Origin: Minisyncoccia bacterium
GTDB lineage: Bacteria; Patescibacteriota; Minisyncoccia; Phycocordibacterales; DATDWN01
DNA: 64,000 bases
Direction: 5' to 3'
Assembly: GCA_049297675.1 (NCBI GenBank)
Contig: JBAQUS010000017.1
Location: 7,456 to 71,455 of the forward strand
The position numbers were made by a program, and so were the translations under genes. The notes under the pieces were generated by a model that saw only the letters and a program-made list of their open reading frames with translations, was not told where the DNA came from and made no database searches. This document shows, in pieces, positions 863 to 35,386 of the stretch (its first letter is position 1; each line of letters starts with the position of its first letter).

Positions 863-961
863 TCCCGTTAGAGTTTTACAGATATAAATAAATGATAAGG
901 TTATTAAAGGTGACAAATTATAATTTTTTAGCATAAAACTATATGAAAAACTCTAACGGGA
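863..961. promoter_or_regulatory. inverted-repeat pair TCCCGTTAGAGTTTT (863-877) / AAAACTCTAACGGGA (947-961) bracketing the gap start codon (ATG 943)
   Basis: The two 15-bp arms are perfect reverse complements, 69 bp apart. The second arm encodes codons 2-6 of gap. Confidence 0.6.
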
Positions 962-1965
962 TAAAAGTTGCAATAAACGGTTTTGGAAGAATTGGCCGAG
1001 CCTTTCTTAAAGGTTCGTGGGACAGTGACGAGCTTGAGGTGGTCGCTGTAAACGATCTCGGAAGTGTCGATAACATGGCGTATCTTTTAAAGTACGACAC
1101 TGTTTATAAGACTTGGGACAAGGATGTAAAAGTGGAAGGTGGAAACCTTGTTATCGACGGCAAGACAGTAAAATTTGTCTCAGAAAAAGAACCCACAAAG
1201 CTTCCGTGGAAAGATTTGAATATTGATGTGGTCGTAGAGTCAACGGGTTTATTTACCGATTATGAAAAAGCCTCTGTGCATCTCTCAGCAGGAGCAAAAA
1301 AGGTTGTCATTACTGCTCCATCAAAAGGTGAGAGTGGGGGAGAAACTATTTTGATGGGGGTGAATGAAGAAAAGTTTGGTACTTGCGACGTAACTTCAAA
1401 CGCATCATGTACCACAAACGCAGCGTCCCCACTCATTGCAATTTTGGACGAAAACTTTGGTATTGAAAAAGCCATACTTAATACTGTTCATGGGTACACT
1501 GCCTCGCAGTCACTAGTTGATGGTCCATCTAAAAAAGATTTACGTGAAGGCAGAGCTGCCGCACAAAACATTGTGCCTAGTTCAACAGGTGCAGCTATTG
1601 CAGTGACAAAAGCTTTTACCAAGCTCGATGGTCTTTTTGACGGTATTTCCATTCGAGTGCCGGTAGTAGCTGGGTCTATCGTTGATGTCACACTTATTTC
1701 AAAAAAAACTACAACTGCAGAAGAAGTAAATGAAGTTTTGAGAGAAGCTTCTAAAACTGAAAGATGGAAAAATATTTTCTCCGCAACTGACGAGGAACTC
1801 GTCTCCTCCGACATTTTAGGGAGTCACTTTGGTTCCATCGCTGATCTCAAGATGACTCGTGTCGTTGGCGGAAATCTTGTTAAAGTCATGGCATGGTACG
1901 ATAACGAAGCGGGGTATACGCACACACTCATTGACCATGTCATAAAGACTGGTTCTACAATATAA
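943..1965 (+). CDS. gap: glyceraldehyde-3-phosphate dehydrogenase, type I
   Basis: INGFGRIGR Rossmann motif and the SNASCTTN active-site cysteine region. Confidence 0.95.
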   Translation: MKNSNGIKVAINGFGRIGRAFLKGSWDSDELEVVAVNDLGSVDNMAYLLKYDTVYKTWDKDVKVEGGNLVIDGKTVKFVSEKEPTKLPWKDLNIDVVVESTGLFTDYEKASVHLSAGAKKVVITAPSKGESGGETILMGVNEEKFGTCDVTSNASCTTNAASPLIAILDENFGIEKAILNTVHGYTASQSLVDGPSKKDLREGRAAAQNIVPSSTGAAIAVTKAFTKLDGLFDGISIRVPVVAGSIVDVTLISKKTTTAEEVNEVLREASKTERWKNIFSATDEELVSSDILGSHFGSIADLKMTRVVGGNLVKVMAWYDNEAGYTHTLIDHVIKTGSTI

Positions 1966-2135
1966 ACTTCCAAATTTGGCGAACTCCTCGTTCCCAAATT
2001 AAAAATGCTCGGAGCCTTAATCTAACTAAGACTTCTCGCCTTTTTAATTTCTCACGTCGGATTTCATCCAAATTTTGAAGTTTTTTAACTTAGTTACTAG
2101 TATTCTCATGGATAAAATTTTGGTACAATTCATGT

Positions 2136-2582
2136 ATGAAAATATACATAGGGTCGGATCATGCGGGGTTTGAACTGAAGAGACACCTTATCTCATATCT
2201 TTCGACTTTGTCACATGACTCTTATGATTGCGGTCCGTACGAGTACAATCATGATGATGATTATCCAGATTATGTGTCAAAAGTTGCAAGGGAAGTTTCC
2301 GAGGATCATGATGCATTTGGAGTAGTTATAGGAAAAAATGGTCAAGGTGAAGCCATAGTTGCCAACAGGTTTCCTTTTGTCAGGTGCATGGTTTATTATG
2401 GTGGGTCAAAACATATGATAACCTTAGGTAGAGAGCACGATGATGCTAATATGATTTCCTTTGGAGCGGATTTCATTACCACTCAAGAAGCCAAAGAGGC
2501 ACTAGAGCTGTTTATCCACACCAAATTCTCCTACGATGAAAGACATGAGAGAAGGATTCAGAAGATTGAAGATTATTCATAA
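2136..2582 (+). CDS. rpiB: ribose-5-phosphate isomerase B (RpiB/LacAB family)
   Basis: MKIYIGSDHAGFELK N-terminus and a length of ~148 aa. Confidence 0.9.
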   Translation: MKIYIGSDHAGFELKRHLISYLSTLSHDSYDCGPYEYNHDDDYPDYVSKVAREVSEDHDAFGVVIGKNGQGEAIVANRFPFVRCMVYYGGSKHMITLGREHDDANMISFGADFITTQEAKEALELFIHTKFSYDERHERRIQKIEDYS

Positions 2583-2598
2583 CAAACACGACACCAAT

Positions 2599-2670
2599 AC
2601 ACGAATGAAAACGAAATACGCGAATAAAATACAGATGCATCTTATTCGTGTCATTCGCATGAATTCGTAG
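2599..2670. repeat. intergenic CGAAT-array element, copy 1 (three CGAAT pentamers at ~10-bp phase, a central AGATGCATCT palindrome, then three ATTCG pentamers)
   Basis: Read directly. Related copies sit at 13424-13500 and 33371-33460. Confidence 0.65.
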
Positions 2671-2687
2671 ATTAGTGTCGCACTTTT

Positions 2688-3353
2688 ATGCAAGTTGTTC
2701 CAGCCATAATTCCAAAAAATAGAGAGCAGATGGAGGAGGAGATAAAAAAAGTCTCTAGTTTTGCTCACTTAGTTCAGATAGATATATCTGACGGTATTTT
2801 CACTCAATATAAAACTTGGCCATACAACGGACAGGATACGGAATATTTTGAAAAGCTAAAAAAAGAAGAGATAGGTTTGCCTAGGTGGGAAGAAGTGGAG
2901 TATGAGGTTCATCTCATGATAAAAAATCCAGAGGAGGTTGTTTTGGATTGGATACATGCCGGGGTTTCTACTATCATAGCTCACATAGAATCTACAGAAA
3001 ATTTTCAGAAAGTTATTGATATCTGCAGAGAAAACGAAGTTTTAGTTGGCGTGGCAATAAAACCCAGTACAGATATAGAGAAGATTAAAACTCTTGTGGA
3101 AAAAGTGGATTTTATACAAGTTATGGGTTCGGATTTACTCGGAAAACATGGTACAAAACTGGAAGACAGAGCCATTCTGATGATAAAAGAAATTCAAAAG
3201 TTGTATCCAAACAAAACTATAGCAGTTGATATAGGAGTTAATCAGACGACGGAAGATATCCTCAAAAATGCTGGTGCAACTAAACTTGTTTCTGGCGGGG
3301 CAATTCTCGAATCAGCAAATCCACAAGAAGTTTATAGTGACTTATCTGAATAG
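2688..3353 (+). CDS. rpe: ribulose-phosphate 3-epimerase family protein (divergent)
   Basis: HLMIKNPEE and IDISDGIF TIM-barrel motifs resemble Rpe. The DGHF metal-ligand His is replaced by Ile. Confidence 0.6.
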   Translation: MQVVPAIIPKNREQMEEEIKKVSSFAHLVQIDISDGIFTQYKTWPYNGQDTEYFEKLKKEEIGLPRWEEVEYEVHLMIKNPEEVVLDWIHAGVSTIIAHIESTENFQKVIDICRENEVLVGVAIKPSTDIEKIKTLVEKVDFIQVMGSDLLGKHGTKLEDRAILMIKEIQKLYPNKTIAVDIGVNQTTEDILKNAGATKLVSGGAILESANPQEVYSDLSE

Positions 3354-3596
3354 CTTCAAGCAATTTTATTTATAGAGCACGCATAAATCTCTGGTGAGAT
3401 TTTGCTCTCGCTCGGCAATCAAGAAAACAATCTTTCTCACTCCAGAGCCTTCTCGCGAACTCGCCAGGATTACCTGTGCTCAAACAACGCTTCAGGCTTC
3501 TTCTCGTTCGTCGTTATTTTCTAATTGCCTCCGCAGTCTCTATAAATAACATTGCTTGAAGTTTTTCCAGGGTATATAATTTATGTTAAGAAATAT

Positions 3597-4496
3597 ATGA
3601 GTGGCAACTTAAACGACGAAAAAATAAAATTTCTTGAAGATAAGGCCAAAGAAATTAGAATTTCTATAATAGAAATGCTTGTCTCGGCTGGCTCAGGGCA
3701 CTCTGCGGGACCTCTTGGTATGGCCGATATTTTTACAGCACTCTATTTTTACATACTTCGCCATGATCCAAAAAAGCCGGACTGGGAAAAAAGAGACAGA
3801 CTCATCCTCTCAAACGGTCACATAAATCCAGTTTTGTATGCCACTATGGCTCATGCAGGGTATTTTCCACTTAAAGAACTTTTGACACTTCGAAAGTTTG
3901 GTACACGTCTTCAGGGTCATCCTCATAGAGAGTACTTACCAATGCTCGAGACTTCTTCTGGACCACTTGGATGTGGACTTTCGCAGGCGGTTGGTATGGC
4001 TCTAGCAGATAGGATGAGCGTAGGAAAATCATCAGACAAGTTTTTCTATGCTCTCTTAAGTGATGGTGAGTTGGACGAAGGCAATAGTTGGGAGGCTATA
4101 ATGCTTGCGAACAAATACAAACTTGGGAATCTTATCGCCATAGTTGATCGAAACAATATTCAGATTGATGGTTTTACGGATGATGTTATGCCACTTGGGA
4201 ATGTTGCAAAAAAATTTGAAAGTTTTGGTTGGCATACTGAAGAAGTAGATGGACATAATTTTGCAAATATTATTGCGGCAGTTGGCAGAGCCCAAGCTGT
4301 CTATAATGCTCCGTCAGTTTTGGTGGCTAGAACCATCCCGGGAAAGGGCGTTTCTTTCATGGAAAAGGATTTTAAATGGCACGGCTCTCCTCCGGGGACA
4401 GAAATGAAAGGTGAGCCACCAAAGGATGAACAGGCGAAGATAGCTTTGCATGATTTACGTACATTAAAAGGCCAAATAACCGGCGAACACGAATAA
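3597..4496 (+). CDS. tktA: transketolase, N-terminal (thiamine-diphosphate-binding) subunit
   Basis: GHSAGPLGMADIFTALYF and SNGH motifs. The ATG at 3597 is preferred over the upstream TTG. Confidence 0.9.
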   Translation: MSGNLNDEKIKFLEDKAKEIRISIIEMLVSAGSGHSAGPLGMADIFTALYFYILRHDPKKPDWEKRDRLILSNGHINPVLYATMAHAGYFPLKELLTLRKFGTRLQGHPHREYLPMLETSSGPLGCGLSQAVGMALADRMSVGKSSDKFFYALLSDGELDEGNSWEAIMLANKYKLGNLIAIVDRNNIQIDGFTDDVMPLGNVAKKFESFGWHTEEVDGHNFANIIAAVGRAQAVYNAPSVLVARTIPGKGVSFMEKDFKWHGSPPGTEMKGEPPKDEQAKIALHDLRTLKGQITGEHE

Positions 4497-4497
4497 T

Positions 4498-4719
4498 ATG
4501 GAAACAATTAATGTTTTTTTTAGGATAGCACTATTGATAATAACGCCAGTTATTTTTTTTCATATAATAAAATATTTTTCATCAAAATTTGACGATTATT
4601 TAAAAAAAACAAAATCAGGTAGAATAATTAGATTAATAATAATTCCGATTGTGTTAACTATTTATTTATATTTCTTATTCATGATTATTATTACTATTTA
4701 TTCATTAAGAAATCTATGA
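4498..4719 (+). CDS. possible small hydrophobic protein (73 aa) in a ~20%-GC spacer between the transketolase halves
   Basis: ORF with two predicted TM stretches. The extreme AT bias means it may be non-coding. Confidence 0.25.
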   Translation: METINVFFRIALLIITPVIFFHIIKYFSSKFDDYLKKTKSGRIIRLIIIPIVLTIYLYFLFMIIITIYSLRNL

Positions 4720-5714
4720 TTAATACTTCTCAAAAACTAAATCCTAATCTTTTTGATAAGAGGGTAGAACAAGTGCCAATTCGTCAAGGTTTTGGACAAG
4801 GACTTTTGGAAGTGGGGGAGAAAAATCCAAATGTTGTTGGGCTTTGCGCGGATTTGACAGAGTCAACCAAAATGAATTTGTTTGCACAGAAATTTCCAGA
4901 GAGATTTGTCCAAGTCGGTGTTGCGGAGCAAAACCTGGCAGCCGTAGCCTCGGGAATGTCTGCCATGGGCAAGATTCCATATATATCGAGCTACGCCATG
5001 TTTTCTCCTGGAAGAAACTGGGAGCAGATTCGCACAACTATTTGCTACAACGATAGGGCAGTTATTATCGCAGGTAGCCACGCTGGCATAAGTGTCGGTC
5101 CTGACGGTGGAACACATCAAGCTATAGAGGATATTGCCATAACCCGAGTAATTCCAAACATGATAGTTATTTCTCCCTGCGATGCTATTGAGGCTAAAAA
5201 GGCCACAATAGCCGCGGCCGATTTAAAAAAACCAGTTTATATTCGTTTAGCTCGCGAAAAAACTCCCGTTATTACTACGAACGATACTCCTTTTGAAATA
5301 GGTAAAGCTCAGCTTTTGTTTGGCGAGGAAAGTAAAAAAGCTGATGTTGGGATTATTGCTACGGGAGCACTAGTATATAAGGCATTCAAAGTAGCTGATG
5401 AATTAGAAAAAGAAGGAACTAGTGTAAAAGTTTTAAATATCTCCACAATAAAACCACTTGATAGTGAAGCGGTGATAAATTTAGCCAAAACATGTGGTGC
5501 TATCGTAACTGTTGAAGAGCATCAAATAATCGGTGGTCTCGGAGGAGCGGTTTCAGAATGTTTAGCACAAAATTTTCATGTTCCGCAAGAATTTGTTGGA
5601 GTCAAAGATAAGTTTGGTCAGTCAGGAACACAAGATGAACTTCTAGAGCATTATGGAATGGGTGAGAAGGATATAAAAGAGGCGTGCAAGAAAGTGATGA
5701 GTAGGAAAATTTAG
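4716..5714 (+). CDS. tktB: transketolase, C-terminal (pyrimidine-binding) subunit
   Basis: Transketolase central and C-terminal domain motifs (GEDGPTHQ-like GPDGGTHQ). Confidence 0.9.
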   Translation: MINTSQKLNPNLFDKRVEQVPIRQGFGQGLLEVGEKNPNVVGLCADLTESTKMNLFAQKFPERFVQVGVAEQNLAAVASGMSAMGKIPYISSYAMFSPGRNWEQIRTTICYNDRAVIIAGSHAGISVGPDGGTHQAIEDIAITRVIPNMIVISPCDAIEAKKATIAAADLKKPVYIRLAREKTPVITTNDTPFEIGKAQLLFGEESKKADVGIIATGALVYKAFKVADELEKEGTSVKVLNISTIKPLDSEAVINLAKTCGAIVTVEEHQIIGGLGGAVSECLAQNFHVPQEFVGVKDKFGQSGTQDELLEHYGMGEKDIKEACKKVMSRKI

Positions 5715-5724
5715 AAAACTATTT

Positions 5725-6717
5725 TTAAATTTTTCTCACCCTATAATCCTCTGGGGCTTTATCTAAAAATTCTTGGATTTTTTCCTGAGCTAGAAGCCCT
5801 TCTTGGGCACCGATTTTCTGAACGACTGACATGGAATTTATTCCAGCCCAACGCATAGCTTCTCCAAAGGGTACCCCTTTGGCGAGGGCTGAGACTATTG
5901 TGGAGGCGTATGCATCCCCGGCACCAGTTCTCTCAAAGGGTTTGTGTGGGTAAATAGGCATAAACCAAAAATCTTCCGTATTACTTGCCTCATATGCATA
6001 AGCACCATTTATGCCATCTGTTATGACTACTGTTTCAGGTCCCAATTCAGACATTTTTTTAAGTAAAACTTTCAAATCCCTTGAACTTTCCCCTAGTATC
6101 TTTTGAGCTTCCTCTACGTTACAGAAAAAAATATCAGTATTTTTATATATTTTACTCAGCGCTTCTGTTCCAAACTTCATCTGGAATGTTCCCGGTTGAA
6201 AGGCCAGTTTAGTTTCGGGATTATTTTCAATGAATTCAGCTATTTGATCATGAAAATTTAAAGAATTTTCTCCAAGAGAAGAAAGATAAATCCACCTTGG
6301 GTGATTAATATCACCGAGGTCATAGTTAAATGTATCATGCTTTACTAATATTGTTCTGTCGACGTCGTACCACAAAACATAGTGATAGTTTGTGTGTTTT
6401 CCAGGGTCAACTCTTATGAAACTGACATCAACATTATTTTTTCTAAGTTCTTCAATATCTTCCTTTCCATTTTGATCGTCACCAATATATGCAAGAAGAG
6501 CAGAGTTTAATCCGAGTCGACTTGCTGAGACAGAAGCGTTGCTACTATTTCCAACTGCTTTTACAATCGTCACTGACTCGAATGGAATTTTATCGCCGAA
6601 ATTTACACAAAGTTTGCAGTTTTCGTTATCCTCATCGCATCTCACCTCAGCTTCTTTGAGTCGAATAAATGCATCAGTCGTAATATCTCCAATAGCCAAA
6701 AAATCTAGCTTTGTCAT
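5725..6717 (-). CDS. PfkB-family carbohydrate kinase (ribokinase-like)
   Basis: N-terminal GDITTD and a C-terminal GAGDAY anion-hole motif. Confidence 0.85.
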   Translation of the reverse strand: MTKLDFLAIGDITTDAFIRLKEAEVRCDEDNENCKLCVNFGDKIPFESVTIVKAVGNSSNASVSASRLGLNSALLAYIGDDQNGKEDIEELRKNNVDVSFIRVDPGKHTNYHYVLWYDVDRTILVKHDTFNYDLGDINHPRWIYLSSLGENSLNFHDQIAEFIENNPETKLAFQPGTFQMKFGTEALSKIYKNTDIFFCNVEEAQKILGESSRDLKVLLKKMSELGPETVVITDGINGAYAYEASNTEDFWFMPIYPHKPFERTGAGDAYASTIVSALAKGVPFGEAMRWAGINSMSVVQKIGAQEGLLAQEKIQEFLDKAPEDYRVRKI

Positions 6718-6754
6718 AAGGAAATTATATCACTTCTCTTTAATGCATGTAAGT

Positions 6755-6775
6755 TGTGGAAGACGGTCTTCCACA
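6755..6775. repeat. REP family 1 palindrome TGTGGAAGAC-G-GTCTTCCACA
   Basis: 10-bp perfect arms around a central G. Confidence 0.85.
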
Positions 6776-6788
6776 GTAGTATGTATTT

Positions 6789-7476: not shown

Positions 7477-7511
7477 TTGGCGCAGGGATTATTTATTGGT
7501 ACAATTAAGTT

Positions 7512-8390
7512 ATGAAATTATTAAGAGAAAGTGTTTTTGAAGCAAAAGAGAGAAAAGTCGCTATTGGACATTTCAATATTTCAAACATTGAAGGTTTCTG
7601 GGGGGTTTTCAGAGGTGCGCAGTCACTTGGTGTACCAATAATAATAGGAGTATCTGAAAGTGAGAGGGATTTTATTGGAGTTAATCAAGTCTCTGCTTTG
7701 GTAAAAGCTACCAGAGAGCAGTATGATTATCCGATTTTTCTAAATGCTGATCACACCTATTCATTTGAAAGGGTCAAAGAAGCCATTGATACCGGATTTG
7801 ATTCTGTTATTTTCGATGGGGCGAAACTTTCTTTTGAGGAAAATGTAAAAATTGCAAAGCAGTGCGTTCAGTACGCCAAGGAGTATACAAAGAAAACTGG
7901 CAGGGAAGTTTTGGTTGAAGGGGAGTTGGGTTTTATTGGTCAGTCTTCGAAGATATTGGACGAAGTTCCAGAAGGAGTAATCCTCGACGAAAAATCTTTA
8001 ACTGACCCAGAAAAGGCAAAAGAGTTTGTAGTAGAAACTGGTGTAGACATGCTTGCCCCAGCAGTGGGGAATTTCCACGGTATGCTTCGGGGCGGGATCG
8101 ATCCTAAGCTAAATATAGATAGAATTAGAGCCATTTACGAGAGTACAAATGTTCCATTGGTTCTCCATGGTGGGTCAGGTAACTCAGAAGATGATTTTAG
8201 AGATGGAATAGCAAATGGTATTTCTATAATTCACATAAACACAGAAATACGTATAGCTTACATAGATGCCTTGAGGAAATTTCTAGAAGAAAATCCAGAC
8301 GAGGTAGCCCCATATAAATTTTTGAAGTCTTCAGTTGAGGCAATACAAAAAGTTGTTACTGAGAAACTACAATTATTCAATAACCTTTAA
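7512..8390 (+). CDS. fba: fructose-bisphosphate aldolase, class II
   Basis: AIGHFNISN and LVLHGGSG motifs of class II ketose-bisphosphate aldolases. Confidence 0.9.
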   Translation: MKLLRESVFEAKERKVAIGHFNISNIEGFWGVFRGAQSLGVPIIIGVSESERDFIGVNQVSALVKATREQYDYPIFLNADHTYSFERVKEAIDTGFDSVIFDGAKLSFEENVKIAKQCVQYAKEYTKKTGREVLVEGELGFIGQSSKILDEVPEGVILDEKSLTDPEKAKEFVVETGVDMLAPAVGNFHGMLRGGIDPKLNIDRIRAIYESTNVPLVLHGGSGNSEDDFRDGIANGISIIHINTEIRIAYIDALRKFLEENPDEVAPYKFLKSSVEAIQKVVTEKLQLFNNL

Positions 8391-19823: not shown

Positions 19824-20966
19824 CTACCTTACTTTAGCCCCGTAGACCTTAGTGGTTGTATCTTCCAACATTTTGTGTAAAGTGTCAACCTCCTCGTTGG
19901 TTAATGTTTTGTCGAGCGACCTATAGGTGATTCTATAAGCATAACTAATATTTCCTTCGCCGAATTTTTCAGCGTTCTCGTACTTATCTATTAGGCTAAC
20001 TTCCTCGACCATATCGGGAATAGTTTCTCTGACAATATCAAAATAATCGTTTGGCACAAAAGTGTTTTTTACTACAAAAGATATGTCACGAACTACAGGA
20101 GGAAATTTGGAAACCTCAACAAACTTTTGCCCGATCTTTAGCTGTTTAGTAACTCTAGGATCCTCTGACCAAAGTAAGCGAATGTCAGGCAAACTCATAG
20201 AGGCTATGGCAAGACGCTCCATTCCGAACCCGAAAGCCCAACCGTTGTAGCCTTCCAAACCAAAATTCGATAGTACAGATTTTCTTGGAAGTCCAGAGCC
20301 AAGCATCTCAATCCATTGGTTGTTTATAAATGCTTCCATCTCGAAGCTCGGGTCAGTGTAGGGGAATGTGTGGTCATAAAATCTAAATTCTACTCCCTCT
20401 CCAAAAACACTCTTGGCTACGTCAGTTAAAATAGCTTTAAGATCATCTGGTGTGGTGTCTTTTTTCTCGTCCGGAGCAAGGAAAAGTCCACCAATTTGAT
20501 GAAAGACATTCATATGACGAGAATCGATTTCGTCCTTTCTATAAACTTTCCCGTAGCAAATTGCTCCTATGCTCTCTTTCTTAAGAATCCTCTCTTTAAT
20601 CTCTGGAAGGTTTAAATAGTAATACCAAAAAACTGTATCATGGGTTCTAAGAACATTTTTGTCATCAACGTAGTAAGTATCAGATTTACTTCTGGCAGGG
20701 TGACCTTCAGGCATATTGAAAAGGTCAAAAAGTATATCAGTTGATATAATTTCAGGAATATTAATTATATCTAAACCGTCTAGACTTTTGACCTTAAGCG
20801 TTCTCTGTACAATCTCATTTATTGGACTTCCACAAGTTCTAGAGAGGTCAGGCATTGAGAGGTATTTTCTTATTCTCGTCGCCTCAATATCACTTCGTGT
20901 TTCAAATTTCTTCAAAACTTCCTCCTGCTTTTCCGAGGAAATAAGGTATTCCTTATGGTTGGACAT
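19824..20966 (-). CDS. pheS: phenylalanine--tRNA ligase alpha subunit
   Basis: GHPAR, LRTH, class II motif 2 KVYRKDEIDSRHMNVFHQIGGL, and motif 3 FGFGMERL. Confidence 0.8.
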   Translation of the reverse strand: MSNHKEYLISSEKQEEVLKKFETRSDIEATRIRKYLSMPDLSRTCGSPINEIVQRTLKVKSLDGLDIINIPEIISTDILFDLFNMPEGHPARSKSDTYYVDDKNVLRTHDTVFWYYYLNLPEIKERILKKESIGAICYGKVYRKDEIDSRHMNVFHQIGGLFLAPDEKKDTTPDDLKAILTDVAKSVFGEGVEFRFYDHTFPYTDPSFEMEAFINNQWIEMLGSGLPRKSVLSNFGLEGYNGWAFGFGMERLAIASMSLPDIRLLWSEDPRVTKQLKIGQKFVEVSKFPPVVRDISFVVKNTFVPNDYFDIVRETIPDMVEEVSLIDKYENAEKFGEGNISYAYRITYRSLDKTLTNEEVDTLHKMLEDTTTKVYGAKVR

Positions 20967-21020: not shown

Positions 21021-21051
21021 TACTACCCCTACATCGGAAGTAGGAGTAGTA
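21021..21051. repeat. REP family 2 palindrome TACTACCCCTAC-ATCGGAA-GTAGGAGTAGTA
   Basis: Imperfect 12-bp arms, 7 nt upstream of the RAYT-2 start. Confidence 0.75.
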
Positions 21052-21058: not shown

Positions 21059-21772
21059 ATGGCAAAAAGAAGGATAAATTTCTCATTAGATGAGTTCTAT
21101 CACTTGTATAATAGAGGAAACAGTAAGCAGAAAATATTTCTTGATGAACAGGATTATGATAGGTTTACCAAACTTCTTTTTCTCTGTAACACCATAAAAA
21201 GTATTAATTATAGGGATGATATCGTTGAAAAAGAAATTGATGCATGGGATTACGATAAAGGAGAAAGTATTGTTTCGATAGGAGCATGGGTTCTAATACC
21301 CAACCACTTTCATATACTTATAACAACACCCCCCACATCGGAAGTCGGGGAGGGGTCGATAAGTTTTTTTATGAAGAAGGTTTGTATTTCATACTCAAAG
21401 TACTTTAATAAAAAGTATGAAAGAGTAGGAGGTTTATTTGAGTCGAATTTTAAGTCTTCACACATAGATGATGATAATTATCTAAAATATATTTTTTCCT
21501 ACATTCACCTTAATCCAGTAAAAAAAGTTTTTCCCAACTGGAAAAATGATGGCATTTTGGATTATGAATTAACAAAAGAGTTTCTGAACAAATATGAGTA
21601 TAGTAGTTACACGGATTATATAAATATAAAAAGAAATCAAAGTAAAATTTTATCGATTGGAGAATTTCCAGACTACTTTTCTGATACTAAATTATTTAAG
21701 GATGAAATTTTTGATTGGCTATCATATACCCCTACTTCCGATGTAGGGGACAATGATGTAGGGGACAATTAG
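21059..21772 (+). CDS. REP-associated tyrosine transposase (RAYT), copy 2
   Basis: FYHLYNRG, AWVLIPNHFHIL and YIHLNPVK motifs. Divergent from copy 1. Confidence 0.8.
   Translation: MAKRRINFSLDEFYHLYNRGNSKQKIFLDEQDYDRFTKLLFLCNTIKSINYRDDIVEKEIDAWDYDKGESIVSIGAWVLIPNHFHILITTPPTSEVGEGSISFFMKKVCISYSKYFNKKYERVGGLFESNFKSSHIDDDNYLKYIFSYIHLNPVKKVFPNWKNDGILDYELTKEFLNKYEYSSYTDYINIKRNQSKILSIGEFPDYFSDTKLFKDEIFDWLSYTPTSDVGDNDVGDN
21329..21355. repeat. REP family 2-like sequence CCCCCCACATCGGAAGTCGGGGAGGGG, in frame inside RAYT-2 (encodes PPTSEVGEG)
   Basis: Shares the ACATCGGAAGT core with the flanking REPs. Confidence 0.6.
21729..21769. repeat. REP family 2 copy in inverse orientation (CCCCTACTTCCGATGTAGGGG) plus a 15-bp tandem duplication (GATGTAGGGGACAAT x2) forming the RAYT-2 C-terminus
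   Basis: Read directly. Encodes ...TPTSDVGDNDVGDN before the stop. Confidence 0.7.
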
Positions 21773-21858: not shown

Positions 21859-21880
21859 CCCCCATATCGGAAGTAGGGGG
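21859..21880. repeat. REP family 2 palindrome CCCCCATATCGGAAGTAGGGGG
   Basis: 5-bp C/G arms around the ATCGGAAGT core. Confidence 0.7.
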
Positions 21881-30000: not shown

Positions 30001-30278
30001 TTGGCTAGAAGGACCAGGCGATATCTTTCTTTATCAATTGACTGCTTATCTTTTCTTCCTCTTATTGCTACATAAGCGTCGATTCCAATAATTGGTTTTA
30101 CACCCTTTTTCTTACATTGAATGTAAAACTCAATTGCTCCATAGAGATTACAGTTATCCGTCAAAGCCAAGGCAGACATGTCATTTTTCTTTGCCTCGTC
30201 AATCAAATCTTTAATTTTCGGCAAGGCATTAAGAAGAGAGTAGTGGCTATGTGTATGGAGATGGGTAAATTTTGACAT
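27051..30278 (-). CDS. dnaE: DNA polymerase III alpha subunit
   Basis: PHP domain (HLHTHSHYS) and polymerase core motifs. Start placed at MSKFTHLHTHS, which has a TATAAT 6 nt upstream. Confidence 0.95.
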   Translation of the reverse strand: MSKFTHLHTHSHYSLLNALPKIKDLIDEAKKNDMSALALTDNCNLYGAIEFYIQCKKKGVKPIIGIDAYVAIRGRKDKQSIDKERYRLVLLAKNDIGYKNLIKLVTYAHLEGFYYKPRIDNELLEKYSDGLIAIAPSFSSDIVLSIKLANQNQALERLDWYKSVFNKNSEENFFLEITHHPEMKGHEETMQKVVEFAKKTNTPLVASHDVYYLHPEDREARQTLIAVASQNDEKLEFKEENFSFISQSDALEFFKNIPEAIENIEKIVERCNLEIEIGKWSLPNYVVESGLSYDDELRRITVEGIKKRKLEKTKEIVERMEYELKIIKDKGYAPYFLVVSDLLNFAHENGILTTIRGSVAGSLVTFLSGITNVNPLEYNLPFERFLNPYRPSAPDIDMDFADNRRDEVIEYAKKKYGEDKVAQIGTFGTMAARGAVRDVTRALGFPYSLGDSISKLIPLGKQGFPMTIDRALKEEPELSRRYKEEPDVKKIIDMAKKIEGCARHISVHAAGVVMAPTPLIDYVPLQYDTKGGENGQHKIITQYDMHSVGEDGVGLLKFDFLGIRNLSILADSVKRVEKIEGIKIDIENVPVDDKKTFDMLARGETIGLFQLNGDGMTRALKDLKPTVIHDINVMVALYRPGPMDNINEYIARKHGKKPIVYLHPKMKNFLDKTFGVLVYQDDLLYTAIEVAGYDWGEVDKFRKAVGKKIPEEMKKQHIKFVEGSQKHGGMSEKKAEELWNLFEPFQGYGFNMAHAVSYGKVAYQTAYMKANFPAIYMSAVLTAESGNIETVAEVINECKRMGIPVLPPDVNKSFEGFGVNKSNIELHTSIPDTIRFGLSTIKNFGEGIAHSIVEERKKNGEFTSLSDFLRRVKDKNLNKKSLESLIKAGAMDSLAGGSDDRSMLLSNIDKMLQFSREERQDMGDQTSLFFGTEIKATEIKLELNGKTTQGDKLMWEKELLGLYISGHPLDSYKDKLENKNLNIKKIKESKKDKDEVVFGGIIEELRPVMTKKGEKMYFLKVSDLSDSIEAVAFPKILTEESSGLFAVENCVVIKGSVSLRNGEKSVLIDKIRLME

Positions 30279-30369
30279 AAAAACATTATAGCATTTCAAA
30301 TTGTTTTCCTTCCTGATTATACTGTTGACTATAAGTAATTTTATTGTTATTTTGTTCTCGGAGGTTTGC

Positions 30370-30819
30370 ATGAGTTTACCGATGGTCGAAGGAAGAGAGC
30401 TTCAATGGTCGTCACTCACAGATTTTGAAAGGGCGTGTCTCGTCCAAATCGGTGAGGAGGTGGTGAGTCCGAATCCAAACACGCACCTCATCAAGATTCT
30501 CTGTGATGCGGTGCGTCTTGCGAGGCAGTGTGCGGACAATCCACCACTCATTTCCATCGAGGATGATCAAACGAGGCTCAGGAAAATCGCACTTAAGCAG
30601 ATAACCAGCGTAGTCAACAAATATCGACGGAAGGACGGATCTGGTCGTCTCCTTCCAGAGTATGATTGGGGAGGTCAGAGAAACTTCCTCATCCGTGACA
30701 TTTTAGAGACTGCTCTGAATGTTGCATTCTGCATTGAGGGTGCGTCAACCGGATTTCATTCCCGAGATTCCAATCGGGTTTATCATGACAGTCCAGTCAA
30801 CAACGCCCCTCGGGGCTAA
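30370..30819 (+). CDS. hypothetical protein (149 aa), GC-elevated cassette divergent from dnaE
   Basis: GGAGG RBS, a TTGACT-N17-TATTTT promoter, and a GGGGTCAC...GTGACCCC hairpin downstream. No recognised domain. Confidence 0.4.
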   Translation: MSLPMVEGRELQWSSLTDFERACLVQIGEEVVSPNPNTHLIKILCDAVRLARQCADNPPLISIEDDQTRLRKIALKQITSVVNKYRRKDGSGRLLPEYDWGGQRNFLIRDILETALNVAFCIEGASTGFHSRDSNRVYHDSPVNNAPRG

Positions 30820-30877
30820 ACACTGGGGTCACCGCCAAAAGCGAGTGACCCCTCACCATATGTGTTAAAATTTTGTT

Positions 30878-31519
30878 ATGAATTATGTTGTCGGTATAGA
30901 TGAAGTTGGAAGGGGACCACTGGCTGGGCCTGTCACTGTCTGTCTGGTTTGTTGCGAAGATAGATTATATAGAAAGTTAAAGCAAAATAGAAGTTTACCC
31001 AAATTAGGTCAAGACAGCAAAAAAATCTCAGAAAAAAATCGCCAGAAATACTCCTTGACCCTGAAGTCCCTAATGTCAAAGACGGTCTTTGACATTTCCA
31101 AAGGGGACCCCTTTGGGAATGAGATTGGAATGTGGTATGTAGTTAATCATGTTTCAAACAGAGTAATTGACCAAAAGGGAATTTCTTTTGCGATTGAAGG
31201 GGCTATTGCCACAGGAATTAAGGGGTTAAATTTAGATGCAAAAAATTGCATAATTTTGCTTGACGGAGGATTAAGAGTGCCGAAAAATTTTAAACAGAAA
31301 ACAATAATAAAGGGCGACGAGAGGGAAAAAATAATTAGCTGGGCTTCGATTTTGGCAAAAGTTTCGAGGGATGATCTGATGATAAATTTGAGTAGGAAGT
31401 ACTCATTTTATGGTTTTGATAAACACAAAGGCTATGGCACCAAACACCACAGAGAAATGATCCTGGAATTTGGCTTAAGCAAAATTCACCGCAAAACCTT
31501 CTGCAAAAAATTGATTTAG
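30878..31519 (+). CDS. rnhB: ribonuclease HII
   Basis: GIDEVGRGPLAGPV active-site motif. Confidence 0.9.
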   Translation: MNYVVGIDEVGRGPLAGPVTVCLVCCEDRLYRKLKQNRSLPKLGQDSKKISEKNRQKYSLTLKSLMSKTVFDISKGDPFGNEIGMWYVVNHVSNRVIDQKGISFAIEGAIATGIKGLNLDAKNCIILLDGGLRVPKNFKQKTIIKGDEREKIISWASILAKVSRDDLMINLSRKYSFYGFDKHKGYGTKHHREMILEFGLSKIHRKTFCKKLI

Positions 31520-31605
31520 TGTTGTCAATTTGCATTTATTAATTGTCTTGAAATCTTATTTTACAAGAATGTTAATTTATGATAATGTCAAATCGGAGGT
31601 AGGTC

Positions 31606-32046
31606 ATGTCCCACTTTTCCGGAGCAGTAATCTGGGAGGAGCGGGATGGAGAAATCTACCTGCTCATTCAAGAGTTTGAGACAACTAACCCTCGTTTTCG
31701 AATAAAGAAAGGAAAAAAGTTTCCTGGTGGGAGAAGTGTACCTGGAGAGTCTCCAGAACAGACCCTACACAGGGAGCTTCTCGAGGAGTTGTGGGTTTGT
31801 GTGAGTGGTGAGATGGTACAGATTGCTGTGGTTCCTTCAAACAGTAATCACACAATGTATTTTTTTCTAATCCATATCTCACAACTTAAGGGGGACATTT
31901 GGAATGAGGTTGTCGATGATGGACAGTCGAAAATTCAGCCTCTAGTTTCAGTAAGAGCTAATAAAGTCGGAAGTCTACCAGGCTTTCTTGATTCACATCA
32001 ACCTGCCTTGTTGGTTACACTTCGTCGCTTTGGACTCGTGGGATAG
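31606..32046 (+). CDS. Nudix hydrolase (GC-elevated cassette)
   Basis: Nudix box GGRSVPGESPEQTLHRELLEELWV and a GGAGG RBS. Confidence 0.7.
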   Translation: MSHFSGAVIWEERDGEIYLLIQEFETTNPRFRIKKGKKFPGGRSVPGESPEQTLHRELLEELWVCVSGEMVQIAVVPSNSNHTMYFFLIHISQLKGDIWNEVVDDGQSKIQPLVSVRANKVGSLPGFLDSHQPALLVTLRRFGLVG

Positions 32047-32159
32047 GACTCTCAATCGTTCTATTCCACGAGAAATACCCCGACACTGTCGTGGTTTTTT
32101 TATAGATAAACTGTTCTAAATTTGTAATTTCTTAGCAAACATGTTAGTCTTTTCACACT

Positions 32160-32378
32160 ATGGTAGTACGAATGCGACATACAAAAAGTCAGCGAAACAG
32201 AACGAGATCACATCATCGTTTAGACAAACCTGCCATAACTTTGGACAAAAACTCAAACGTTCCACATCTTCGTCACAGAGCTTCACTCGTGACAGGACAA
32301 TACAAAGGCAGAATGGTCATTGATGTTCAAGCTAAGATTGCTAAGAAAGCTAAGAAGAATAAAAAAGAAGGTAGATAA
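32160..32378 (+). CDS. rpmF: 50S ribosomal protein L32
   Basis: MVVRMRHTKSQRNRTRSHHRL...PHLRHR L32 signature. Confidence 0.8.
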   Translation: MVVRMRHTKSQRNRTRSHHRLDKPAITLDKNSNVPHLRHRASLVTGQYKGRMVIDVQAKIAKKAKKNKKEGR

Positions 32379-32479
32379 GAGGAATAGTACATAAATAGAT
32401 AGGATTTGGTTTTGGGGACTATGCAAATTTTTTGTTATTTGATATCCTGTAACTAGTTACTAAATGCTAGACACAAAAA

Positions 32480-33370
32480 ATGGCAAACAGGCACCTTTCC
32501 AGATCGATAGTTCTTCAATCACTCTTTGAGTGGGATTTTTCGTCCAAAAATCCTGCAGATTCAGACGAAATTTTTGATCGTAATCTGAAAGAGTTCGCTC
32601 CTGGTGCTGGGGATAAGCCTTTCATGGACAATCTCATGAAGGGTGTAATGGATAAAAGAAGAGATATAGATTTAATTATAGAAAAAGCCGCACCTGATTG
32701 GCCAATAGATAAGATAAGTGTCATAGACAGAAATATTTTAAGGATCGGTCTTTATGAACTTTTGTTTTCAGACAGAAAAGAAGTTCCTCCAAAAGTTGCT
32801 ATAAACGAGGCTATCGAGCTTTCTAAAACATTCGGTGGTGATACATCTAGCAAGTTCGTAAATGGAGTTTTGGGAGCAGTTTACAAAGAGCTTGGTGAAC
32901 CAGGCAAGGAACAAGTTTCAAAGGTTAAAAATAAAGGTGAAGGTGCTGTTGTGACAAATGAATACCTTGGTGGAGCAGTGGTCTTTGCCAGGGATGGAGA
33001 GGAGGTTTACCTTGCTCTGGTACATGATGTTTTTGGAAGGTGGACCCTATCTAAGGGTCATATTGATGATAATACAAATCAAATTGATGGGATCAAGGTC
33101 ATAATAAAGACTGAACTTGGTTTAAATATTGAAGTGAAAGAAAAGCTAGGTGAAAATGAGTATGTTGCTTATCATCCTGAAAAAGGAAAGATAAGAAAAC
33201 ATGTCATATATTATTTGGCAGAGTCTGCGTTTGTTGATATAACAAGAGAGATAAAAGGTGGTCTTGATGATGCAAAATGGTTTAAGCTCGCTGACATACT
33301 TGACCTTAATTTTTATGGTGATATATTGCCGATAGTTACGAAAGCGATTAATATATTGTTAAAGAAGTAA
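32480..33370 (+). CDS. nusB: NusB antitermination factor fused to a C-terminal Nudix-like domain
   Basis: N-terminal NusB helices (RSIVLQSLFEWDF, ILRIGLYELLF). The C-terminal ~140 aa has a Nudix-like GHIDD...ELGL segment. Confidence 0.75.
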   Translation: MANRHLSRSIVLQSLFEWDFSSKNPADSDEIFDRNLKEFAPGAGDKPFMDNLMKGVMDKRRDIDLIIEKAAPDWPIDKISVIDRNILRIGLYELLFSDRKEVPPKVAINEAIELSKTFGGDTSSKFVNGVLGAVYKELGEPGKEQVSKVKNKGEGAVVTNEYLGGAVVFARDGEEVYLALVHDVFGRWTLSKGHIDDNTNQIDGIKVIIKTELGLNIEVKEKLGENEYVAYHPEKGKIRKHVIYYLAESAFVDITREIKGGLDDAKWFKLADILDLNFYGDILPIVTKAINILLKK

Positions 33371-33460
33371 TCGCGATACGAATCTACGAATACATACGAA
33401 TAGTCAATGCTCTCACAAGTAGAGAAAAGACAAATATTCGCATTATTCGCATAAATTCGT
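33371..33460. repeat. intergenic CGAAT-array element, copy 3
   Basis: ACGAAT x3 at 9-10 bp phase, then ATTCGCATTATTCGCATAAATTCGTA. Confidence 0.65.
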
Positions 33461-33481
33461 ATATTGGCATCGGTACCATTT

Positions 33482-34171
33482 ATGGATCTTGAAGAATTTC
33501 AAAAATCAATAGGAGTAACATTTAAAGACAAAACCCTTCTTCAGCAGGCTTTTGTTCATCGTTCATACATAAACGAAAACAGAAGCTCAGGATTGTCCCA
33601 TAATGAAAGACTGGAATTTTTGGGCGATGCTGTATTAGAACTTGTTATAACCGATTTTTTATACAAAAAATATCCAGAAAAAGCAGAGGGAGAGCTGACT
33701 TCGTACAGATCTGCCTTAGTTAACGCCGACACATGTGCTGGGGTTGCAACAAAACTTAGCATGGGCGATTACCTCATGTTATCAAAAGGTGAGAGTAAGG
33801 ATACAGGAAGGGCAAGACAATATATTTTAGCAAATGCACTGGAGGCACTTATTGGTGCTACATATCTTGATCAAGGTATGGAAGGCGCTAAAGTGTTCAT
33901 CGAGAAGAATTTTACGCTCATGATAGATAAAATTATTGAGGAGAAAAGTCATGTGGATAGTAAGTCCTTTTTTCAAGAAAAAGCTCAAGAGTATGATTCT
34001 GTAACGCCTTCATATAAAACCATTAAAGAAATTGGTCCAGATCACGAAAAGAAATTTACAGTAGGAGTTTATATTGGTAAAGAATTAATTGCCAATGGTG
34101 AGGGAGTTTCCAAGCAAGAAGCAGAACAAAACGCTGCTAAATCCGCATTAGAAAAAAGAGGGTGGAACTAA
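33482..34171 (+). CDS. rnc: ribonuclease III
   Basis: ERLEFLGDAVL catalytic motif and a C-terminal dsRBD. Confidence 0.9.
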   Translation: MDLEEFQKSIGVTFKDKTLLQQAFVHRSYINENRSSGLSHNERLEFLGDAVLELVITDFLYKKYPEKAEGELTSYRSALVNADTCAGVATKLSMGDYLMLSKGESKDTGRARQYILANALEALIGATYLDQGMEGAKVFIEKNFTLMIDKIIEEKSHVDSKSFFQEKAQEYDSVTPSYKTIKEIGPDHEKKFTVGVYIGKELIANGEGVSKQEAEQNAAKSALEKRGWN

Positions 34172-34243
34172 CGCCAAGGGAAATCATACTCTTTTCCTAG
34201 AACGTGCTTTTTCCGTTATGGTAAATTTTGCTATACTTAATAT

Positions 34244-35257
34244 GTGAAAAGGAAAAATATTTCTGGAGGTAATACTCAGGACGTTGTTATTTATAGAAGT
34301 TCTGAAGGCAACGTAACTTTAAGAGCTGACATAAGTAAGGACACTATATGGGCGACACAAGCACAGATTGCTGAACTTTTCGGTGTTGATAGAACAGTAA
34401 TAACCAAACATATTCGTAATATTTTTCGTGAAAGAGAACTTCAGGAAAAGGCAGTATGTGCAAAATTTGCACATACTGCAGGTGATGGGAAAACATATAA
34501 TGTTCAGTATTATAATCTTGATGCAGTAATTTCAGTTGGATATAGAATAAATTCTAAACAAGCAACACAGTTTAGAATTTGGGCAACTGAAACTCTCCAT
34601 GATTACATTATTCATGGAATGGCAGTAAATACAGAAAGAATAAAGAAATTAAATAACTCTAAACTTCAAGATTTAAATAGTAAAATTTCTTTCATACAGG
34701 AAACAATAAGAAGAAAACAGCTTGACCAAGAAGAGGTAGATAGTTTACTTTCAGTTATTCGTGACTATGCAAATTCATGGACTTTTCTTCAGAAATACGA
34801 TGATGGGAGTTTGGAACTGACAAAGAGTAAAACAAAAGAAAAATCTGTTTTAGAGTATGGTTTTGTCAGGAGTTCGATTGATGAATTGACTAGAAAATTG
34901 AGACAAAAAGATGAGGCGGGCGATTTGTTTGGTAATGAAAGGGACGAGACTTTCAAGGGAATATTAAAGGGAATTTATCAGTCATTTGGTAGTAAGGAAA
35001 TTTATGATGGTTTGGAGGTTAAGGCTGCACATCTTCTATATTTTATAATAAAAGATCATCCATTTTCCGATGGCAACAAACGCATTGGCTCTTTTCTGTT
35101 CATTCTATTTTTAGAATTAAATAAAATATTATATAACAGAAAAGGTGATAGAAAAATTACAGATAATACACTTGTTGCTCTAGCACTTTTGGTTGCTGAA
35201 AGTGACCCAAAAGAAAAAGAAACAATGGTAGCTCTAATAACAAATCTCTTAAAATAA
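34244..35257 (+). CDS. RhuM-family N-terminal domain fused to a Doc/Fic domain (HPFSDGNKR)
   Basis: RhuM-like IWATQAQIAELFGV...YNLDAVISVGYRINS, and the C-terminal Fic/Doc motif HxFxDGNKR. GTG start. Confidence 0.75.
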   Translation: MKRKNISGGNTQDVVIYRSSEGNVTLRADISKDTIWATQAQIAELFGVDRTVITKHIRNIFRERELQEKAVCAKFAHTAGDGKTYNVQYYNLDAVISVGYRINSKQATQFRIWATETLHDYIIHGMAVNTERIKKLNNSKLQDLNSKISFIQETIRRKQLDQEEVDSLLSVIRDYANSWTFLQKYDDGSLELTKSKTKEKSVLEYGFVRSSIDELTRKLRQKDEAGDLFGNERDETFKGILKGIYQSFGSKEIYDGLEVKAAHLLYFIIKDHPFSDGNKRIGSFLFILFLELNKILYNRKGDRKITDNTLVALALLVAESDPKEKETMVALITNLLK

Positions 35258-35276
35258 AAAGAATGTATCCCGTTAG

Positions 35277-35386
35277 AGATTGTCCAGTTAAATCTTGCTA
35301 ATTTTAGTGTTATAATTTAAGTTAGTGATTTTTTTATTAATAATAATCAACTTCGGAAATTAAAAATTTCCTATCTCTAACGGGAT
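35277..35386. promoter_or_regulatory. inverted-repeat pair ATCCCGTTAGAGAT (35277-35290) / ATCTCTAACGGGAT (35373-35386) ending at the smc ATG
   Basis: 14-bp perfect arms 82 bp apart. Same CCCGTTAGAG core as at gap. Confidence 0.6.

Follow-up and report, generated by a model that had tools for sequence, protein, structure and literature searches.

The window analysed here, a stretch of 64,000 nucleotides from the metagenome-assembled genome of a Minisyncoccia/Paceibacteria bacterium (contig JBAQUS010000017.1), carries a pair of short inverted repeats at the 5′ end of each of two genes, gap, whose open reading frame (ORF) starts at 943, and smc (35385-37637, + strand; SMC_N, E 1.9e-61). The core of the repeats, the 10-mer CCCGTTAGAG, has exactly four matches in the 64-kb window, at 864 (+), 951 (−), 35269 (+) and 35375 (−), which form two inverted pairs, as a first-pass annotation made from the sequence had described. 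A chance origin was rejected, since only 0.07 matches would be expected and none of 100 shuffled sequences gave more than one. At gap the arms TCCCGTTAGAGTTTT and AAAACTCTAACGGGA lie 69 nt apart and the right arm forms codons 2-6 of the gene (KNSNG), in agreement with that annotation. At smc it was correct in placing the end of the right arm in the ATG, but the distance between the arms is 92 nt rather than the 82 it gave. The two arm pairs are otherwise nearly unrelated, with almost no common sequence outside the arms. No further copies were found in the window, either by a search allowing mismatches or by a covariance-model search with the filters off. Both leaders, for which structure prediction had been proposed, fold far better than shuffled sequence, with energies of −30.5 kcal/mol for the gap region (z −6.0 against shuffled controls) and −36.2 kcal/mol for the smc region (z −5.5). 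In the whole window only a tRNA scores above the gathering score of Rfam 15, and no tRNA or other small RNA lies between the arms. Membership of a curated Rfam 15 RNA family was set aside because no match came near the gathering score; in a permissive search the matches of best E-value on the two regions were to chance-level miRNA models, at 21 bits where 83 are needed. In all likelihood, each of the two pairs of inverted repeats marks the ends of one member of a family of non-autonomous elements resembling MITEs (miniature transposable elements with inverted repeats), which belongs to the Patescibacteria and mainly to the Paceibacteria/Parcubacteria.

The copy at smc is a canonical member of the main family, 118 nt long, with exact arms (35268-35385, +). 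A covariance model of the element, R1, scores it at 91.8 bits on the + strand and 50 bits on the − strand. Its gene-distal terminal inverted repeat, TCCCGTTAGAGAT (35268-35280, +), is complementary over 13 nt to the gene-proximal one, ATCTCTAACGGGA (35373-35385, +), the last A of which is the A of the smc ATG. When the arms are extended to ATCCCGTTAGAGAT (35267-35280) and ATCTCTAACGGGAT (35373-35386), the last bases overlap the ATG at 35385-35387. Just inside the proximal arm is a sub-terminal hairpin, GGAAATT-AAA-AATTTCC (35355-35371, +), followed by a T and then the arm, a geometry seen throughout the family. The copy is bracketed by two target copies of ATGTA. The left one (35263-35267, +) holds the original smc start and the target-site duplication TGTA, and lies 7 nt downstream of a −10-like TAAAAT (35250-35255, +); the right one (35385-35389, +) is the present smc start, its A coming from the element and its TGTA from the duplication. 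From the original ATG a short upstream ORF (uORF; 35263-35301, +) encoding MYPVRDCPVKSC runs through the left arm to a stop codon. A promoter scan found nothing inside the smc copy, and the TGTTATAAT at 35308-35316 is at chance level for the element family.

The smc orthologues of four other species, at 78-80% SMC identity, show the site without the element: an extended −10 box, TG-n-TATAAT or TGATATACT, is followed after 7-11 nt by ATGTATTTGAAATC. The empty site in these relatives reads ATGTAT and the filled site of the window ATGTA, 118 nt and TGTAT, within an upstream region of TAAAAT-aaaaaga-ATGTA, the 118-nt element and TGTATCTAAAATC. Since four relatives show the empty site and TGTA is duplicated, the smc copy is shown to have inserted into the first codons of a gene with a promoter directly adjoining its ATG. 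Other contigs with an identical SMC, compared as a check for polymorphism, have the same arrangement.

Between rnc (33464-34171) and smc the window also holds a gene with RhuM/Fic domains (34244-35257), the stop codon of which lies 5 nt before the old smc ATG. In the relatives the rnc-smc spacer has other small ORFs or a terminator-like hairpin in its place. Because window and relatives hold different inserts there, the spacer is an insertion hot spot in this lineage.

The gap copy (863-961, +; 99 nt; R1 41.7 bits) belongs to a short subfamily. Its left arm lies at 863-877 (+), and an imperfect extension of the pair spans 860-884 and 940-964. The right arm (947-961, +) is now coding, being read as K-N-S-N-G in codons 2-6 (MKNSNG), and the ATG used as the gap start (943-945, +) is borne by the element, in frame with both right arm and gene. 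The N-terminal extension noted in the first-pass annotation is accordingly the right arm read in frame. Loci fetched for comparison are designated by L-numbers and GAPDH homologues by P-numbers; L118 and L132, of the same subfamily, have the identical in-frame ATG(AGT)AAAAACTCTAACGGGA. Upstream of the element a putative remnant of the original gap start, ATGACTTG (855-862, +), opens a 10-codon uORF (855-887). The remnant ATG at 855 matches the start position of L131 when the upstream sequences are compared by eye, but a MAFFT alignment sets the L131 sequence after the element and so does not show the match. Further upstream is a promoter-like TTAACT-17-TATACT with a TG (797-825, +), the TATACT of which is conserved in L131; a transcript from this site would hold both arms.

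An identical gap locus is present in GCA_049296815.1. The two closest relatives, L131 and L133 (GAPDH 94% and 91% identical), are empty at gap and their proteins start MIRVAING and MTKIRVAING. In L132 (GAPDH 86%) an element of the same subfamily sits at the same codon with a clean TTAA duplication: the filled site reads ATGAAAAAAATTAA, the element and a right flank of TTAAAGTT / TTAAAGTTGCT, which, counted from the A of the original ATG, puts the insertion 10 nt downstream, and the element-borne ATGAGTAAAAACTCTAACGGGA yields MSKNSNG-IKV. The right junction in the window, GGG-ATA-AAA-GTT, is one synonymous change away from that of L132, and within the short class no interiors resemble each other more than those of these two copies (0.70 against 0.51-0.66). 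One old event and two hits on the same TTAA would both fit these sequences. Close GAPDH homologues start MI(K/R)VAING or M(A/S/K/T)KI(K/R)V, without KNSNG, the exceptions being P0169 and P0175 (MSKNSNG). Judged from the junctions, the MSKNSNGIKV form of the GAPDH N-terminus is made by the element. In L039 the junction ATG is mutated to ATA, and an upstream in-frame ATG within the element gives ...SNG-I.... It would seem that the element inserted into a TTAA a few nucleotides inside the gap ORF and that the N-terminus was replaced by M-K-N-S-N-G; the junctions are seen in the sequences and the order of events is inferred from them. Presumably gap survived the insertion thanks to the in-frame ATG that elements of this subfamily have directly ahead of the right arm. 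The proposal in the first-pass annotation of a MITE-like insertion that donated start contexts is borne out by the target-site duplications, the empty sites in relatives, the hundreds of copies elsewhere and, at gap, the ATG and KNSNG codons supplied by the element.

Within the clade (P0121-P0199) GAPDH N-termini have several lengths, MI(K/R)V..., M(A/S/K/T)KI(K/R)V..., MAFFSKTKKVRV... and MSKNSNGIKV.... Upstream of the gap promoter, directly after the gene for the small subunit of ribonucleotide reductase, a long imperfect hairpin of GTGAAAG/CTTTCAC repeats (712-805) is probably a terminator; it is absent in the closest relative, L131.

Further copies, on which the first-pass annotation had made its proposal depend, are very many in other genomes, and none lies elsewhere in the window. 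A scan of GTDB, with one genome per species, for TCCCGTTAGAG-N(70-100)-CTCTAACGGGA gave at least 120 stretches with paired arms, and the same scan of JGI/ENA metagenome contigs again gave at least 120. The flanks of 132 copies among the GTDB matches listed were analysed, of which 110 could be oriented, together with 124 copies from the metagenomes. All of these were recruited through exact 11-nt arms, so that arm positions 1-11 are fixed by the search; a covariance-model search of 720 kb added at least 17 copies with variant arms. The matches are labelled almost entirely as Patescibacteria (Wolfe-, Yanofsky-, Kaiser-, Nomura-, Harrison-, Zambryski-, Taylor-, Lipton-, Sungii- and Campbellbacteria, and Paceibacteria), some only as generic 'Saccharibacteria' TPA entries, and a few carry other names. 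Metagenome-assembled genomes labelled outside the Patescibacteria account for L116 (Omnitrophica), L020 (Elusimicrobia), L031 (WOR-3) and L024 (Gammaproteobacteria). L116 has two typical copies, both at gene starts; L020 and L031 are GC-rich and have neither the ATG nor the duplication; they could be mis-binned, or not related to the element. The paired arms were not found in IMG/VR, INPHARED or PLSDB, and a phage or plasmid origin was rejected on this ground.

The flanks of nearly all of the 132 copies read ...ATGAA↓TCCCG...CGGGA↓TGAA... or its reverse complement, the arrows marking the ends of the element. A perfect 4-bp direct repeat flanks 80 of the 110 oriented copies (TGAA in 52, TGGA in 13, TGAG in 9 and TGTA in 3), and in these 80 the base before the repeat is A in 76, G in 3 and T in 1; a few copies have flanking repeats of 3 or 5 bp. 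As read from the flanks, the element is shown to insert at A↓TGRR and to duplicate TGRR, usually as 4 bp and occasionally as 3 or 5. Since its last base is A, the right junction becomes GGG-ATG-RR, so that an insertion into a start codon leaves the gene with a complete ATG; the promoter and the old ATG are then found at the left junction. Of the 132 copies, 110 have a junction ATG that begins an ORF of at least 60 amino acids on exactly one side, and in the independent metagenome sample this ATG is an ORF start in 102 of 124 copies. The proteins concerned match 158 Pfam families, of a housekeeping kind (epimerases, MurA, SMC, EF-G/LepA, the Met-, Ile- and Phe-tRNA synthetases, ribosome recycling factor (RRF), L17), so that the junction ATGs are genuine start codons without a functional theme, which argues against a regulon. 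Four targets were apparently GTG or TTG starts, turned into ATG by the element. On the evidence of these junctions this is a small mobile element that lands almost exclusively on the start codons of ordinary genes, its last base rebuilding the ATG.

Positions +4/+5 of the target are purines in 92% of the clean cases, with AA in 66%, against about 27% and 16% at the gene starts of the window. Given this excess of purines, the mobilising enzyme would prefer A↓TGRR. Upstream of the ATG the targets contain at most 0.3 bit of information per position and no arm-like sequences. ATGAA occurs in the window 9 times at gene starts, 40 times at other intergenic sites and 187 times within coding DNA; if intragenic insertions were lost, about 20% of the survivors would be expected at starts from a 5-bp target, and 82-83% are observed in the two samples. 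The enzyme may sense a feature of transcription or translation starts, or copies elsewhere may be quickly removed from these deletion-prone genomes while those on start codons are shielded.

The target data bear directly on the suggestion in the first-pass annotation of a small regulon or a symmetric operator pair, under which the repeats would be a device of the host for regulation in cis, either a conserved leader RNA or an operator pair, for a regulon including gap and smc. Such a device could account for arms that are conserved across the phylum and always overlap the start codon, for the stable folds of the leaders, for the covariation of arms and hairpin described below, and for old copies in which the arms are intact and the interiors diverged. 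It does not account for 158 Pfam families with no common theme, for orthologous genes of close relatives that differ in whether a copy is present, for direct duplications of the target in the flanks or for near-identical copies at unrelated genes of one genome, and nothing in Rfam matches it. An operator pair is a particularly poor fit because the spacing of the arms is variable and not in multiples of the helical turn, the cores being separated by 77 nt at gap, or about 88 bp between centres, and by 96 nt, or about 107 bp, at smc. With the hallmarks of transposition set against it, the regulon is not supported; as the origin of the repeats a regulatory device is already largely refuted, and we consider it very improbable.

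Including the arms the element is 95-122 nt long, with a peak at 117-121 nt and a second mode at about 99-103 nt in both samples. The smc copy is of the main length class and the gap copy, with its arms extended as GAGTTTT/AAAACTC, of the short one. The terminal inverted repeats are of 13 bp, TCCCGTTAGAG-R-Y, and pairing ends at position 14. Position 12 is A-T in 80 copies, G-C in 16, T-A in 7 and C-G in 2, and position 13 is T-A in 64 and C-G in 40; each forms a Watson-Crick pair in 105 of 110 copies, with four pair types at position 12 and three at position 13, so that both of these positions, which lie outside those fixed by the search, covary. Complementarity is likewise kept in the variant arms TCCCGTTAGAA/TTCTAACGGGA, found in 12 secondary copies in the same loci with the same ATGRR flanks, and in one copy with TCCCGATAGTG/CACTATCGGGA, where the changes are compensatory and the target is the same. 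Copies of the main class have a 7-bp hairpin and then a T leading up to the gene-proximal arm, in the pattern (TAC)-GGnnnnn-loop-nnnnnCC-T-RYCTCTAACGGGA-TG. The stems have 22 different sequences, and every stem position but the first G-C has two to four types of Watson-Crick pair. RNAalifold recovered both helices from 32 copies, with double (compensatory) changes at nine pairs; these copies were selected for having the hairpin, which makes the result descriptive rather than an unbiased test. Mismatches in the hairpin are G·T in five cases and A·C in two, too few to tell RNA from DNA folding. In a second architecture, read from the sequences, the 3′ strand ...GCGACC-T-GTCTC... has no local partner and pairs with the far end of the element. 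Apart from the hairpin the interior is AT-rich, non-coding and unconserved.

The strict hairpin is gene-proximal in 43 copies and clearly distal in about 4, the latter read off the listing; in the metagenome sample the numbers are 33 and 1, so that, in genomes unrelated to one another, more than 90% of copies share one orientation. From these counts the orientation of insertion is fixed, with the covarying hairpin on the side of the gene. Such uniformity does not sit with an inverton, in which the repeats would flank an invertible promoter that a site-specific invertase flips to turn the gene on or off. Inverted repeats do bracket an AT-rich segment just upstream of genes, TGTTATAAT is present in the smc copy and a few copies have the opposite orientation. 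The segments are, however, only 70-95 bp long, −10 motifs in them favour neither the sense strand nor any one position, essential genes are among the targets, and target duplications with empty sites indicate insertion and not inversion, which leaves an inverton scarcely credible. A portable promoter or ribosome-binding-site cassette was rejected on similar grounds, as −10, extended −10, −35-like and Shine-Dalgarno (SD) motifs are equally frequent on both interior strands and have no fixed position.

The same uniformity of orientation would fit a site-specific recombinase, of the tyrosine or a similar type, that took the place of a cut-and-paste DDE transposase and had as its substrate a circular intermediate or a single strand in folded form, the flanking repeat being the crossover region as at attC or the attP hairpin of CTX phage. 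Arm complementarity kept by compensatory change and a second covarying helix are typical of substrates recognised by structure. Joined ends would read CTCTAACGGG-ATGAAT-CCCGTTAGAG, a 10-6-10 palindromic site like a recombination core, and the flanking repeat is dominated by ATGAA (66%), as if the overlap had to match. The fetched loci yielded no parent element bearing a transposase, but they yielded no recombinase either. The repeat follows the second codon of each target and varies from 3 to 5 bp, the targets lack arm-like sequences (the information upstream of the ATG being so low), and the cores GTTAGAG/CTCTAAC are in the opposite order to the R′′/R′ boxes of attC. On balance such a recombinase seems an unlikely agent, less so than a regulatory origin.

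That the element has been copied is seen within single genomes. The interiors of copies at different genes of one genome are up to 0.91-0.93 identical (L116, L091) and five further within-genome pairs reach 0.72-0.81, against a median of 0.58, a 95th percentile of 0.67 and a maximum of 0.79 between genomes. Many other within-genome pairs differ as much as unrelated copies, so that several old lineages of the element would coexist in one genome. There are also tandem and nested insertions at the same ATG, for instance in L032, L007 and L227, and up to four copies within 8 kb. A non-coding size below about 600 bp, terminal inverted repeats, a target-site duplication set against an empty site, and several copies per genome with recent copying are together what is expected of a MITE; the element has every testable feature of one except a known parent transposase.

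Several observations weigh against this reading of the repeats as a mobile element settled on start codons, or limit it. No transposase or recombinase, and no long element with these arms, was found in the fetched loci, which total about 1.7 Mb of flanking DNA and form the basis of the searches for a parent element and an enzyme; an autonomous parent was rejected there because no arm pairs lie 0.5-3 kb apart. Neither is there a recurrent neighbour gene, as all-against-all clustering of 943 ORFs from 120 loci gave no family present in more than seven loci; the top families resemble ordinary housekeeping proteins, judged from their sequences without a Pfam run. The length of the duplication is not strictly fixed (3-5 bp), and six copies, that at gap included, carry (A)CTTG at the distal flank with no duplication there. 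A 5-bp target leaves a four-fold excess of start codons over other intergenic ATGAA sites unaccounted for, which calls for additional targeting or for selection. The copies were ascertained through exact 11-nt arms only, which limits what they show of decay rates and of the share of degenerate copies. The interior has no sense-strand enrichment of −10 or SD motifs, and the way in which essential genes are still expressed behind the element is inferred. In addition, only 18 of 83 copies keep the uORF frame open through the element, as far as an ATGA overlap or the TAA that lies in the right arm, against about 9 of 83 in each other frame, a weak signal in the expected direction as far as the sequences go. 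Lastly, the arms are nearly invariant across very divergent lineages in which the interiors are randomised, and arms and hairpin covary, which is unusual for a purely selfish MITE. This conservation with covariation hints at selection on a folded single strand, either RNA or single-stranded DNA, or on a conserved host enzyme.

The (A)CTTG outside the gene-distal arm was seen in L010, L021, L088 (two copies), L099 and at 858-862 of the window, where about 0.5 would be expected by chance.

Among known systems the Correia elements (CREE/NEMIS) of Neisseria, which have 26-bp repeats and a TA duplication, are close in general form. They too are of about 100-150 nt, non-coding, with terminal inverted repeats and a target-site duplication and with many copies near genes; they are co-transcribed with the neighbouring genes, whose expression is altered by the action of RNase III on the inverted-repeat hairpins (PMC2649163, PMC10969869). 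Correia elements also carry IHF and promoter motifs (PMC2649163). Unlike the element here, which is more than 80% exactly on start codons and in one orientation, they are not tied to start codons. The present element has 13-bp repeats of unrelated sequence, duplicates TGRR at A↓TGRR, rebuilds the ATG with its last base and has no conserved internal promoter. Identity with Correia elements was rejected, the arms being different, the duplication TGRR and not TA, and the hosts Patescibacteria and not Neisseria. Rickettsia palindromic elements are small palindromic mobile elements that lie in frame within genes and add peptide segments (PMC10969869), and may be compared with the N-terminal extensions in ...SNG that are seen at gap, in L132 and in L039. 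They lie inside ORFs and are translated throughout, whereas here coding use is the exception (the gap subfamily) and a position just before codon 1 the rule.

In the choice of target there is a parallel with insertion sequences (IS) of the IS900/IS901/IS902 type, of the IS110 family, which insert in the interval from the ribosome-binding site to the ATG and in an orientation that is set relative to the gene. These are autonomous, of about 1.4 kb, with a DEDD transposase, and have no terminal inverted repeats and no target duplication. The likeness ends with the target, since the element here is 0.1 kb and non-coding, has inverted repeats and a 4-bp duplication, and sits inside the start codon of genes mostly without an SD motif; a start-targeting IS of the IS110 family was rejected on its size, repeats and duplication. 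REPIN/RAYT, attC and CTX attP all have paired inverted sequences about 60-140 nt apart, pairing that is conserved over the interior, long persistence and a folded single strand that is recognised. The element shares with them the paired inverted arms, of which the pairing rather than the interior is kept. REPINs have no target duplication, are extragenic and have no association with start codons, and the duplication seen here argues against membership of REPIN/RAYT; no RAYT or integrase was found among the 943 neighbour ORFs from 120 loci. The attC sites read 5′ RYYYAAC ... GTTRRRY 3′ and stand in cassette arrays next to an integrase. An integron attC was rejected because the core order, GTTAGAG...CTCTAAC, is the opposite one, copies are scattered at housekeeping starts and there is no recurrent neighbour gene. 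Readings as a group I intron, an IS200/IS605 element or a Helitron-like element were set aside on anatomy (size, inverted repeats and a true duplication). The element is set apart from the bacterial MITEs described so far by its start-codon target, the terminal base that rebuilds the ATG, its fixed orientation and ends that are conserved, with covariation, across a phylum-level radiation. In the literature searched no description was found of MITEs in Patescibacteria or the candidate phyla radiation (CPR), of the core sequence, or of MITEs that target start codons, and a 2024 review of prokaryotic MITEs nowhere mentions start or initiation codons (PMC10969869).

How genes would be expressed from behind the element may be approached through the starts of the window. 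Many of its genes lack an SD motif and show TAnAAT, frequently with a TG upstream of it, at a distance of 6-8 nt from the ATG, for example at 2120-2138, 5718-5735 (−), 7496-7514, 19967-19985 (−) and 63796-63812 (−), and a minority have GGAGG (15426, 31606, 45619, 47439). The genome seems from these starts to mix leaderless and SD-led genes. Among the targeted genes an SD-like motif was found in 3 of 76, and about half have TAnnnT 4-10 nt upstream. An anti-SD motif is detected in only 48% of Parcubacteria 16S rRNAs (PMC9297842). Many genes look leaderless, their −10 box lying 6-8 nt ahead of the ATG, so that transcription from the old promoter would run into the element and make it a new 5′ leader. 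This leader would be about 125 nt long, and the arms with the flanking A-U pair would cover the real AUG. That the arms pair in the mRNA over the start codon, as the first-pass annotation proposed, is plausible, the predicted fold being thermodynamically sound and fitting the covariation of arms and hairpin.

Two routes, which are not exclusive, could then lead to translation. By the first, a short uORF from the old AUG (M-x-P-V-R-D/G...) would run through the left arm, and since it crosses this arm, ribosomes on it would melt the arm and unmask the real AUG. Throughout the family the uORF peptide begins M-x-P-V-R-(D/G). Translation of the whole element as a rule was rejected, as the uORFs open to the right arm are a minority, though about twice as many as in the other frames. 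By the second route RNase III would cut the leader, in which the terminal helix of 13-14 bp would make up a helix of about 21 bp, by stacking on the 7-bp hairpin or, in the second architecture, by being extended. A helix of this length is the size that RNase III needs. The window encodes RNase III (rnc, 33464-34171), two genes upstream of smc, and RNase III binds or cleaves the inverted-repeat hairpins of Correia elements in Neisseria mRNAs (PMC2649163, PMC10969869). We would tentatively put forward, as a possibility short of the expected outcome, that the element is a mobile 5′ leader which recognises the transcription or translation start of leaderless genes, which is kept because its folded RNA is translationally transparent, through removal by RNase III or the retained upstream AUG, or else regulatory, and which is moved by a conserved enzyme encoded by the host.

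The window has other repeats. A second inverted-repeat family is present at 3348-3567 and 47209-47362, in which the arms, each of 30 nt, are separated by 92-160 nt and the interiors have in common the core CGCATAAATC-N8-GATTTTGCT, which has two exact matches where none is expected; both copies follow a stop codon and precede the promoter of the next gene. The 21-nt near-palindrome CCCCTACATCGGAAGTAGGGG occurs four times in 850 nt (21026-21046, 21330-21350, 21729-21749 and 21859-21879), where none is expected, in and around the ORF at 21059-21772, and could be a repeat like the repetitive extragenic palindromes or an operator array. Further intergenic palindromes lie at 38153-38200, at 62985-63076 and at 45320-45537 with 45364-45465 nested in it, this double inverted repeat standing ahead of the gene at 45619; they include a perfect 48-nt palindrome and a 26-nt repeat pair, ATGCCAAGGG(G/T)GCCCCTTGGCA.

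CPR genomes are tiny and gene-dense, often without SD initiation, and in them the element can occupy the starts of genes that are essential (SMC, RRF, tRNA synthetases, MurA) and leave these genes alive, a niche for a mobile element that is absent from the 2024 review of prokaryotic MITEs. For annotation it is a trap, as gene callers meet two ATGs about 120 nt apart and a conserved uORF, MxPVRD, while its abundance means that it could serve as a strain-level marker in CPR metagenomes. It is also a source of new N-termini, such as the ...SNG-I extension of GAPDH, and an enzyme that mobilises it with A↓TGRR specificity and a fixed orientation would be of interest in its own right. The insertions amount to a natural experiment in translation, in which leaderless mRNAs would acquire a leader of about 125 nt that folds strongly, a test of how translation begins in these organisms. 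If the tentative account of a mobile leader is true, the element would have found an intron-like solution to life on the start codons of essential genes, and would provide a phylum-wide layer of post-transcriptional control.

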